A DNA stretch of 20,163 bases from a virus (lineage: Duplodnaviria > Heunggongvirae > Uroviricota > Caudoviricetes): the IMG/VR virus record IMGVR_UViG_2718218396_000005, one strand, 5' to 3'. The position numbers were made by a program, and so were the translations under genes. The notes under the pieces were generated by a model. That model searched no databases, had not been told where the DNA came from, and saw only the letters and a list, made by a program, of their open reading frames with translations. Within the stretch, counting starts at the first letter, position 1; each line of letters begins with the position of its first letter. Below, piece after piece: positions 14,334-18,113 of the stretch.

Positions 14334-14564
14334 TTAATGGAGTTTGTTTTGCTGCTGGATGAGCTGTTGAAACTCGTGCAGATCATCCGCCAGATAGCTG
14401 AAAACAGAGGCGGAATAAATGTTTGATAGTGCGTGGCTGCGCTCATGCAGCATATTGATGTGCATGATTTGCGCGACGCGTGATGCGCGGGAAAGTCTGC
14501 GGTTGATTTCAGTCTGGATGTGACGACGCTCCGCGATAGCGCGGTGCTGTTTGCGGTCTGCCAT
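14334..14564 (-). CDS. Hypothetical small basic protein (76 aa)
   Basis: ORF in the track with an AAGAGG-type RBS (reverse complement of about 14572-14577) 7 nt upstream of the ATG. Basic and helical in character. Confidence 0.5.
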   Translation of the reverse strand: MADRKQHRAIAERRHIQTEINRRLSRASRVAQIMHINMLHERSHALSNIYSASVFSYLADDLHEFQQLIQQQNKLH

Positions 14565-14744
14565 GGTGTGGCCTCTTTGCTCGGTGATAGAAATAACTCA
14601 CCATCCAGAGTTGAGAATCTCGGGGTGGCGAGACGTACAGGGTTCTCAACACCGGAGAGCAAAGAATCCGGCCCGACCGAAGTCGGCCCCGTACGCCCCG
14701 CCATAATTCTGACGCGAAAAAGACGTGGCAATACAGTACGCACA

Positions 14745-14765
14745 AAAAAACCGCTAGCGCGGTTA
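14745..14765 (-). terminator. Rho-independent terminator inside the early operon (minus strand)
   Basis: On the minus strand, stem AACCGC / GCGGTT with loop GCTA followed by a run of T (plus strand A run at 14745-14751). It lies about 120 nt downstream of the 99-aa gene stop. Confidence 0.45.
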
Positions 14766-14886
14766 TGCGCTTTGCTCTGTATCGGGTTGAGAATCCCGGC
14801 ACCCGTTTTATGAGGTGCAGCGGAAATGTAACCTGACCGATTGCGGCATGGCAAGCGGTTTTTTTGTGTGTGCATGTTCTGGTTTC

Positions 14887-15672: not shown

Positions 15673-16089
15673 CTATGCGTTAAATACGGCACGTTGCGCG
15701 TCATCAATGAATACAGCTTGAGAGCGTTCTATCAGGCGGAGATTTGTCAGAAGCTCTGACTCTTTTGTGTGGTAAGGCGTTATCAGGTATTTGCCGTGCA
15801 GTTCGGCAATAATGGTGTATTGCAGCATCATTGCTGAACCAAGAATATAAATGCAGCGTCCAATGCTGGACGGATTCATGGCTGCAACTGTTGACTGTGT
15901 TTTAAGAGTGTCGATTTCTTTGCTCTGTTCCTCAATAACTTTGGCTGCTTCAGGGGTGGCTATTGCGATGGTCAGTGCGTAAAGCGCTGCCATATGTTGA
16001 TTATCTTTCTGGGCTGCCCTGGACAGTTTGTCTTGCTCTGCTGACACTATTTTTAATGTATTGATAATATTTTTTTCTTTTGCGTTCAT
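15673..16089 (-). CDS. Hypothetical protein (138 aa), AT-rich gene
   Basis: ORF in the track with a GGAG RBS (reverse complement of about 16097-16100). Lower GC than neighbours. Confidence 0.6.
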   Translation of the reverse strand: MNAKEKNIINTLKIVSAEQDKLSRAAQKDNQHMAALYALTIAIATPEAAKVIEEQSKEIDTLKTQSTVAAMNPSSIGRCIYILGSAMMLQYTIIAELHGKYLITPYHTKESELLTNLRLIERSQAVFIDDAQRAVFNA

Positions 16090-16181
16090 TTTATATCTCC
16101 GTTATTTACGTGTGCGAATACCTCCGCGAATGCGGATAGTTTTCAGGTTTTCGGGTTTAATCTGGTGTTCTGTTTAAGCTG

Positions 16182-16295
16182 TTATTTGTCAGTGAAAAAG
16201 CGTTCAATCTTTTTTACTGAATGAATAATTCGCATAATCCCAATGGCGCAGGCCACCGAAATAATCAGAACAAGCCATGAGATAAATATACTCAT
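16182..16295 (-). CDS. Unlisted small ORF encoding a 37-aa single-pass hydrophobic peptide (MSIFISWLVLIISVACAIGIMRIIHSVKKIERFFTDK)
   Basis: ATG at 16295-16293 overlaps the TGA stop of the upstream 80-aa gene (ATGA coupling). About 20 hydrophobic residues are followed by a basic amphipathic tail, and the stop is at 16184-16182. Too short for the supplied ORF track. Confidence 0.45.
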   Translation of the reverse strand: MSIFISWLVLIISVACAIGIMRIIHSVKKIERFFTDK

Positions 16296-16534
16296 GCGAT
16301 ATTCCCCAGCTTATATGGTTCAATGTGTTCCCCGCATTCTGCGGCACAGATCAGCTCGGAAAGTTCGTTAAGTGCATCCAGATCATCAGCGTAAAAAGCA
16401 ACGTCATACAAACTCCGGATTGCCCTGGTCAATGAGTCACGGGCTGCACGTTCAGCATGAGCGCCTGATGCACTTAAGCGAAAATAAAATCGTTCAGGTG
16501 CTTTGTTAATGAGAGTTTTATATTCTTTGCCCAT
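16292..16534 (-). CDS. Hypothetical early-operon protein (80 aa)
   Basis: ORF in the track. No family recognised. Confidence 0.55.
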   Translation of the reverse strand: MGKEYKTLINKAPERFYFRLSASGAHAERAARDSLTRAIRSLYDVAFYADDLDALNELSELICAAECGEHIEPYKLGNIA

Positions 16535-17206: not shown

Positions 17207-17410
17207 TTAGCTGTTAGCCAAAGCGTCTTTTAACATCGCCACAAGGTTTACTTCAGGCTTTTCCATTTTGGCGCGTTTGGGGCGGATAATAATTCGACCG
17301 TCAGCCAACATCTTTTTGCATGTATTAAGAGGGATACCTGTTATCTCTGCATATTTCTGCAGGGATACATAGGGGGCATTCACATTGATATTGATGGTTA
17401 TACCTGACAT
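17207..17410 (-). CDS. Cox/Apl-like small helix-turn-helix DNA-binding protein (excisionase/regulator-like)
   Basis: 67-aa ORF. The segment PYVSLQKYAEITGIPLNTCKKMLADGRIIIRP parallels the P2 Cox HTH region as I recall it (PYQEFAKLIGKSTGAVRRMIDKGKLPVI). It is the second gene of the lytic-side operon. Confidence 0.55.
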   Translation of the reverse strand: MSGITININVNAPYVSLQKYAEITGIPLNTCKKMLADGRIIIRPKRAKMEKPEVNLVAMLKDALANS

Positions 17411-17426: not shown

Positions 17427-17633
17427 TCAGGAAGATTTGTTTTGTTCTTTCTGGGTTAGCTCTAGGCCGCGAAGGGAGATCATGCGCGCCATGTTAGAGG
17501 ATGAGCGTTGTTCTTTAGCTGCCATTTCATCAATGACGGCTCGCTCCTCGAGGGACAGCCGAAGTGCCAGTCTTGGACCTGTGGCGGTGTTACGCGGAAT
17601 GCGTGATCTGGTATCGTGAAGAACTTGTTTCAT
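17427..17633 (-). CDS. Ribbon-helix-helix (CopG/Arc-like) regulator, first gene of the lytic-side operon (Cro/Apl-equivalent position)
   Basis: 68-aa ORF. RLSLEERAVIDEMAAKEQRSSSNMARMI has the beta-strand plus helix pattern of RHH proteins. It is divergent from the repressor gene. Confidence 0.55.
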   Translation of the reverse strand: MKQVLHDTRSRIPRNTATGPRLALRLSLEERAVIDEMAAKEQRSSSNMARMISLRGLELTQKEQNKSS

Positions 17634-17675
17634 AGTGGTATATTGTGATCATCTAATAGCTCGTGAAATCATTTT

Positions 17676-17693
17676 GGTATCAAAAAAGATACC
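17676..17693. promoter_or_regulatory. Candidate operator: perfect palindrome GGTATC-N6-GATACC in the divergent switch region
   Basis: GGTATCAAAAAAGATACC at 17676-17693, 15 nt upstream of the repressor ATG. Further GGTAT half-sites occur at 17636-17640 and 17609-17613. Confidence 0.4.
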
Positions 17694-17708
17694 TGTCAAG
17701 GTTTTTGT

Positions 17709-18113
17709 ATGAAAAATGATATTGGTCGGCGGTTGCGTGAGGAAAGGGAAAGATTGGGACTTAGTCAAGTTGCCATGAGCGACATTGGTGGAGTCAAAAA
17801 GCTAACTCAGCTTAGATATGAGAAAGGAGATAGCTTTCCTGATGCTGCGTATTTGGCAGCGCTGTCTCGTTTTGGCCTTGATGTTCAGTATGTTGTGTTG
17901 GGAATTCACTCACCTGAAACTTATAACGATGATGAGCAGGAATTGATTACTCGCTTTCGAGCAGCTTCGTTAGATGTGAAAAACGCGGTGATTGGGGCTT
18001 TAAAAGGTGCGATCAGTGAAAAGGAAACTCAGCCATCAGGACGTGAGTTAAATATTTCTGGTGGTAATAACCGTATCGCTGGTCGTGACTATAACGAAAC
18101 TAAGGGTAGGTGA
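17709..18113 (+). CDS. XRE-family helix-turn-helix immunity repressor (P2 C / 186 CI equivalent)
   Basis: 134-aa ORF with an N-terminal HTH (RLREERERLGLSQVAMSDIGGVKKLTQLRYEKGDSFPDAAYLAALSRFGLDVQYVV). It is divergent from the Cox-like operon and co-directional with int, as in P2/186. Confidence 0.75.
   Translation: MKNDIGRRLREERERLGLSQVAMSDIGGVKKLTQLRYEKGDSFPDAAYLAALSRFGLDVQYVVLGIHSPETYNDDEQELITRFRAASLDVKNAVIGALKGAISEKETQPSGRELNISGGNNRIAGRDYNETKGR

Follow-up and report, generated by a model that had tools for sequence, protein, structure and literature searches.

A P2-like prophage of Escherichia coli O157:H7 carries in its early operon a 37-codon reading frame that is, judged from its conservation, a genuine protein-coding gene under purifying selection; its product, a predicted single-pass membrane peptide, probably acts on a host envelope process. 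The frame lies on the minus strand of a window of 20,163 nucleotides, by which we mean the whole stretch of DNA that was analysed. It runs from 16295 to 16182 as ATG AGT ATA ... AAA TAA and encodes MSIFISWLVLIISVACAIGIMRIIHSVKKIERFFTDK (37 codons and a stop). A sequence-only reading of the window had reported this peptide at 16182-16295; our translation matches it exactly and adds the strand, which that reading did not give. The same reading had called the gene unlisted, which is true of the open-reading-frame track that it used but not of the public databases: it already has entries in RefSeq, GenBank, UniRef and the record of phage P88. The ORF is catalogued rather than new, and by its sequence and genomic context it belongs to the unnamed P88 gp07/WP_000021655 family.

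Several lines of evidence corroborate the peptide ORF as a real gene, as the sequence-only reading had held. First, the frame is intact and the junction with the preceding gene is retained in 95 of 95 copies compared, a set that comprises the window, annotated phages, 80 IMG/VR loci and distant relatives and whose members are closely related and not independent. The earlier reading had named failure of the frame to persist in homologous regions as an outcome that would tell against a gene, and the frame is conserved there. Second, selection is specific to the frame. Over codons 1-33 of 31 distinct alleles, variable sites fall 7, 5 and 16 times at codon positions 1, 2 and 3, with the third position enriched, and pN/pS is 0.225 in the peptide frame versus 1.65 and 1.01 in the other two frames; these ratios are pairwise averages over related alleles and not tree-based estimates. 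Third, the peptide has deep relatives. A search of 1.84 billion representative proteins returned only nine relatives at E ≤ 1e-3, all with the same architecture. They include two 41-aa lineages with 64% and 56% identity to the peptide over residues 1-36, found in other P2-like prophages in the same place (DUF4761 ... 80-aa gene, 4-nt overlap, peptide ... gpA). Among three deep lineages the dN of the peptide is 0.25-0.32, and dS approaches or exceeds saturation (from 0.9 to values that could not be computed). Fourth, the start context is conserved, as described below. Fifth, residues 3-21 reach a mean Kyte-Doolittle value of 2.68, the top value among the window's 233 six-frame ORFs 30 aa or longer, and an ORF reaching 2.5 is seen in only one of 20 shuffled windows. 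Together these observations effectively exclude a chance open frame at the 3′ region of DUF4754 that annotation pipelines have picked up, a reading that draws on the very short length of the ORF, its lack of a protein family match and its absence from the listings of two EHEC Ribo-seq data sets, whose supplements were searched. The peptide is also absent from the supplement of a UPEC small-protein preprint. An operon that is repressed in lysogens would be expected to escape Ribo-seq; the absence fits such repression and proves nothing.

The existing records describe the gene by name only. RefSeq, for an E. coli strain that matches the window at 100% identity, has a CDS with these exact coordinates and labels it 'hypothetical protein'. 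The phage P88 copy, gp07, is annotated as 'membrane protein' (YP_009113050.1) and is 94.6% identical over 37 aa; it has the same position after DUF4754 and the same overlap, with no structural difference between the two. The copy in vB_EcoM-569R5 is named 'putative membrane protein', and the UniRef name for the exact sequence is 'Prophage membrane protein', recorded on at least 1000 contigs. A literature search for WP_000021655 and DUF4754 found no papers. Searches of the peptide against Pfam, PHROG, NCBIfam, PADLOC and PDB sequence profiles gave no meaningful match; at E ≤ 1, NCBIfam returned none and the sole Pfam match was PET117 (E = 0.19), which is noise.

The gene is common in E. coli, where it is present in 1334 of 5426 complete genomes, with a DUF4754 gene adjoining it in each match listed; carriers include O157:H7, O145 and EPEC E2348/69. 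The peptide is 84-100% identical to 12 phage records and 54% identical to two records of phage 503458. When a back-translated peptide pattern was run against 185,579 species representatives, the only hits were E. albertii and one 'Vagococcus' contig. This contig (locus L095, NZ_JBQPOM010000071.1, 'Vagococcus sp. WN89Y', Firmicutes) carries an E. coli-type P2-like early region with DUF4754 and the 37-aa peptide, and is most likely a contaminated or mislabelled assembly. The family is narrow: outside Escherichia, to which it is essentially restricted, there are sporadic records from Salmonella and Citrobacter.

Over the 1.7 kb surrounding the ORF, the sequence matches E. coli strain 7784 at 100% identity and many O157:H7 chromosomes at 99.9%. 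The same 1.7 kb are ~90% identical to the Peduoviridae P2-like phages P88, Xuanwuvirus P884B11, vB_EcoM-569R5 and Citrobacter phage Shae_phiSM. The host element is an E. coli O157:H7 prophage of the P2-like group (Peduoviridae, P88/Xuanwuvirus-type). Its minus-strand genes run in the order Arc-like, Cox-like, DUF4761, a 92-aa gene (orf92), DUF4754 and the peptide, followed by a 138-aa gene, a 67-aa gene, a MarR-like gene, an Ead/Ea22-like gene, the isrK and C4 RNAs, a 'derepression protein' gene, a 121-aa gene and gpA. The early-operon genes are all on one strand and tightly packed, the peptide gene lies between the cox-like gene and replication gene A (the gpA replication endonuclease), and the integrase, like the C-type HTH repressor, is encoded on the opposite strand. 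This layout is recognisable as that of a P2/186 early operon, and the early operon in which the sequence-only reading had placed the peptide is the Pe-type operon of a temperate phage. The features discussed here are collected in Table 1.

Table 1. Features in and around the peptide gene, in coordinates of the window
Feature	Position	Strand	Basis and remarks
Small membrane peptide gene	16182..16295	minus	Sequence; RefSeq CDS with identical coordinates (WP_000021655.1); homologue of phage P88 gp07
ATGA junction, peptide start overlapping DUF4754 stop	16292..16295	minus	Kept in 95/95 copies, including the 41-aa relatives
Shine-Dalgarno-like UGGGGAA	16302..16308	minus	7-13 nt 5′ of the peptide ATG, within the 3′ end of the DUF4754 coding sequence
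Predicted transmembrane helix, codons 2-24	16224..16292	minus	Kyte-Doolittle 2.68, alignment; best conserved part
Basic amphipathic tail, codons 25-37, predicted cytoplasmic	16185..16223	minus	Hydrophobic moment, charges; end replaced in 41-, 45- and 59-aa relatives
5-bp hairpin, sense RNA UCCGC-AUUC-GCGGA then GG	16123..16136	minus	45 nt 3′ of the peptide stop
Upstream partner, 80-aa DUF4754 protein	16292..16534	minus	Family matches (PF15946, phrog_2549); adjoins the peptide gene
Cox-like gene	17207..17410	minus	5′ of DUF4761
Arc-like gene, 68 aa	17427..17633	minus	phrog_3431 'Arc-like repressor', full length, E = 4e-27
Candidate early promoter TTGACA-17-CAAAAT	17671..17699	minus	10/12 matches, consensus match only; faces the peptide operon
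C-type repressor gene	17709..18113	plus	HTH repressor match; divergent, adjoining the candidate promoter

Other parts of the early region also merit comment. The Arc-like ORF would be the first gene of the early operon. Over it, RefSeq (strain 7784) calls a 45-aa ORF on the opposite strand (17482..17619, WP_001673482.1) that has no family match and is probably a wrong-strand call. Further along the operon, two minus-strand segments score above the Rfam gathering threshold, C4 antisense RNA (RF01695, 78.5 bits) at 14621..14708 and isrK (RF01394, 63 bits) at 14744..14818. They lie just 5′ of the 76-aa 'derepression protein' gene (14334..14564, PF25738), and by these family matches C4/isrK and the derepression gene make up an immunity-RNA and antirepressor cassette of the P1/P7 type, set within the early operon of a P2-like phage.

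The peptide ATG (16295..16293) overlaps the TGA of DUF4754 (16294..16292) in the tetranucleotide ATGA, an arrangement that the sequence-only reading had noticed and that recurs throughout the 95 copies. Upstream of it, relatives carry equivalents of the Shine-Dalgarno-like motif at the same distance, GGGA, GAGGAG, GAGGTGG or AGGAGG where the window has GGGG, and the motif is re-created lineage by lineage despite differing C-terminal residues of the upstream partner. Relatives with 56-64% identity to the peptide retain the ATGA, such a motif and the order of the genes, although identity of the upstream partner is down to 25-39%. The ATGA overlap and the Shine-Dalgarno-like motif, both conserved across deep relatives, are consistent with translational coupling of DUF4754 and the peptide.

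The peptide is organised as a hydrophobic segment and a charged tail. Residues 22-37 contain five K/R and two D/E, all of the net positive charge lies C-terminal to the helix, and the tail, taken as a helix, is strongly amphipathic (hydrophobic moment 0.64-0.72). By the positive-inside rule, the N terminus, one or two residues long, is predicted to be periplasmic and the tail cytoplasmic. Hydrophobicity, charge and hydrophobic moment support, at the level of prediction, the single-pass membrane peptide with a basic amphipathic tail that had been described from the sequence. Conservation is concentrated in residues 1-24, and the alignment shows S6, W7, L10, I11, A17, M21, R22 and I24 to be invariant across deep lineages. 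These residues lie on one face of the helix (resultant 0.56 versus 0.27 expected, permutation p = 0.025), a weak statistic that covers eight positions in four lineages. The extreme C-terminus is the variable part of the peptide. A 45-aa form, found at locus L005 and six others, results from a -1 slip at the T-run of codons 33-34 that reads into the 3′ region (FSLVNNDTNKTSN), and a 59-aa form is a singleton (L096), a frameshifted version of the 41-aa type; the last few residues of the peptide appear dispensable. A lipoprotein or a cleavable signal peptide was considered and rejected: SVAC at residues 13-16 resembles a lipobox, but there is no K/R in the first seven residues, and C16 is not conserved, being M or S in relatives.

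A DUF4754 or DUF4754-like 80-aa gene lies directly 5′ of the peptide gene at every copy whose upstream gene was checked, that is, in the window, the 80 IMG/VR loci, the E. coli matches listed and the distant relatives. The genes that flank the DUF4754-peptide pair differ between phages. The AlphaFold2 model of the DUF4754 protein is a three-helix bundle (pLDDT 79), for which Foldseek against the PDB returned only generic helical bundles (best E = 1.7), and PADLOC with this partner gave noise only (E = 0.051). A degenerate-pattern scan from the partner alignment failed to yield a pattern, as no stretch was conserved enough. In the window, residue 13 of DUF4754 (codon 16496..16498, minus strand) is a proline (NKAPERF) inside predicted helix 1; it is a leucine in all other members aligned, and the proline looks like a substitution specific to this O157:H7 lineage. 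Some DUF4754 entries of 103-128 aa (P0052, P0055, P0061, P0067, P0068, P0074 and P0083) run on into the peptide region. They were weighed as natural fusions of DUF4754 and the peptide and set aside as errors or pseudogenes, being frameshifted read-throughs that are mostly in the wrong frame and mostly read-assembly singletons.

Downstream of the peptide gene, a short RNA hairpin (UCCGC-NNNN-GCGGA, then GG) follows 94 of 94 copies, including distant relatives with different downstream genes. In the alignment 99.2% of cells are paired and the loop is free to vary. The stem shows one double change, of the inner pair from C-G to U-A, and three G.U wobble variants, each able to pair in the sense strand only; the thermodynamic z-scores of the hairpin are weak. 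An A-rich run (16137..16150) stands beside the hairpin, and a T-run is found on the plus strand only. An ordinary operon terminator was rejected, as no U-run follows the hairpin in the sense orientation. A terminator on the antisense strand, suggested by the plus-strand T-run, was rejected as well, since none of the three wobble variants can pair on the antisense strand. Nor does the hairpin resemble the terminators annotated downstream of dhr in 186 and of gene B in P2. The best reading of the conserved arrangement is that DUF4754, the peptide and the hairpin form one portable module. P2 and 186 are without this module, which would therefore serve an accessory early function, non-essential for this phage type, rather than core replication.

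We favour, with moderate confidence in the account as a whole, an early-lytic membrane peptide that is made with DUF4754 and acts through a face of its helix on a host envelope protein. According to this model, the peptide gene would be transcribed as part of the early lytic operon, which in the lysogen would be held off by the divergently encoded C-type repressor. Ribosomes ending DUF4754 would re-initiate at the overlapping ATGA, aided by the Shine-Dalgarno-like motif, so that both products are made together. The 37-aa product would then be inserted in the inner membrane as a single helix formed by residues ~2-24, with one or two N-terminal residues toward the periplasm and the basic amphipathic tail in or along the cytoplasmic face. 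The likely working surface is the helix face formed by the eight invariant residues; we propose it since these residues cluster there and since the helix is conserved and the end of the tail replaceable. This face may pack against another membrane helix, one belonging to an inner-membrane protein of the host that serves, for example, division, cell-wall synthesis or transport, and the acidic DUF4754 three-helix bundle may be the cytoplasmic partner of the peptide. The host target itself we purely infer, the peptide having no homology to any protein of known function.

The relation between the two proteins also admits an account, which we consider unlikely, in which the peptide has no host target and is only a membrane anchor that tethers or regulates DUF4754, the carrier of the activity. 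Strict co-occurrence and the ATGA junction in every lineage agree with it, as does the movement of the gene pair as a unit between differing flanking genes. The charges are complementary as well, the C-terminal half of DUF4754 being acidic (nine D/E, one K/R) and opposite in charge to the basic tail. Conservation argues the other way. Among the three deep lineages the partner has a dN of 0.49-0.99 and 25-45% identity, and the dN of the peptide is 2-3 times lower; helix residues 1-24 of the peptide are 50-75% identical, far more conserved than DUF4754. Moreover, the end of the tail, where contact with the partner would be expected, is the most variable part and tolerates replacement by frameshift, and the opposite pattern is expected of a pure tether.

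A membrane-damaging toxin of type I, or a pore-forming or holin-like peptide that depolarises the membrane, is distinctly unlikely. Type I toxins (Hok, Ldr, TisB, Ibs, ShoB) are 20-50 aa long and combine a single hydrophobic helix with an end that is polar or charged, and translation of Hok is coupled to an overlapping upstream frame, mok. The 37-aa peptide shares with Hok/Gef, Ldr, TisB, Ibs and ShoB the small, very hydrophobic single helix, and its charged C-terminal tail is a further feature in favour of such a role; it gives no match to a toxin family model, and neither Pfam nor NCBIfam returns a toxin or holin even at E ≤ 1. A search for an antisense RNA antitoxin found no Rfam match at E ≤ 1 in 16000-16400. 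Promoter- and terminator-like sites are at chance level, no commoner than in shuffles, and the sole plus-strand pair (16041-16136) ends before the ORF. Its promoter-like element, CTGACA-16-GATAAT (10/12 matches, 16041..16070, plus strand), runs antisense across the start of the 138-aa gene toward the hairpin and is probably a chance site, counts of such sites being equal to the shuffle expectation. The gene, moreover, sits inside an operon with a 4-nt overlap and is not a stand-alone locus. The transmembrane helix and charged C-terminal tail are also those of holins and antiholins, but the gene is not part of a late lysis cassette with an endolysin or spanin, being flanked instead by genes for regulation and replication (Cox-like, DUF4761, DUF4754, MarR-like, derepression, gpA). 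Depolarisation before replication would, in addition, be expected to harm the phage.

Superinfection exclusion during lytic growth, in which an early membrane peptide bars DNA entry of rival phages in the manner of T4 Imm and Sp, is improbable. T4 Imm and Sp are early membrane proteins, a membrane location and early expression as presumed for the peptide would fit such a role, and accessory regions of P2-like phages carry anti-phage genes, such as tin in P2. The peptide gives no PADLOC family match, however, and its gene lies on the lytic-operon strand, so that it would not protect the lysogen. The known defence hotspots of P2-like phages, moreover, are elsewhere, at the tin/old and fun(Z) positions.

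We return to the preferred reading, in which an early membrane peptide acts on a host envelope protein. A host-directed role is proposed on the grounds that P2 and 186 lack the module, that 186 carries fil and dhr at the corresponding position, and that a small phage membrane protein offers a precedent. Phage 186 Fil (a division inhibitor) and Dhr (an inhibitor of host replication) are small, non-essential and host-acting, and their genes follow a Cox/Apl-type regulator and precede gene A, a position equivalent to that of the peptide gene. They differ from the peptide in having no sequence similarity to it (best BLASTP E = 1.4 over six residues) and no comparable hydrophobic helix: the Kyte-Doolittle maxima of Fil (75 aa) and Dhr (66 aa) are 1.26 and 0.49. 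Small membrane proteins that block division include Bacillus phage SPO1 gp56 and Caulobacter SidA, which belong to unrelated phages or hosts, so that no homology to the peptide is expected. Closest in mode of action to what we propose, Gp11 of Staphylococcus phage PhiNM1 is a small early membrane protein that blocks division by binding MurG and DivIC (PMC11237401). The likeness to the peptide would lie in a small membrane protein made early and proposed to bind host membrane proteins of division or cell-wall synthesis; phage and host are unrelated, and no homology is expected here either. The peptide matches no known toxin, holin, defence or division-inhibitor family in Pfam, PHROG, NCBIfam, PADLOC, PDB profiles or BLASTP against 186 Fil and Dhr, and at most it works like the known class of small phage membrane effectors. 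The role in inhibiting division or transport, or as a toxin, that the sequence-only reading had put forward would be one of analogy only.

A more specific form of the preferred reading is tentative and, on balance, doubtful: DUF4754, the peptide and the hairpin may be a previously undescribed two-protein host-takeover module, in which the helix face inhibits a specific inner-membrane host protein (of the divisome, the lipid II or the transport machinery) early in lytic growth.

What the analysis delivers is validation of a hypothetical gene that the databases had already catalogued; it can inform annotation and be taken forward to experiment, and a specialist will not find it surprising. No part of phage and bacterial proteomes is characterised as poorly as the small membrane proteins. 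The present peptide is common (found in about a quarter of complete E. coli genomes), clearly under purifying selection and linked to DUF4754, itself a domain of unknown function. If its host target were defined, two uncharacterised families would gain a function, and a new peptide that inhibits an envelope process of E. coli might follow.
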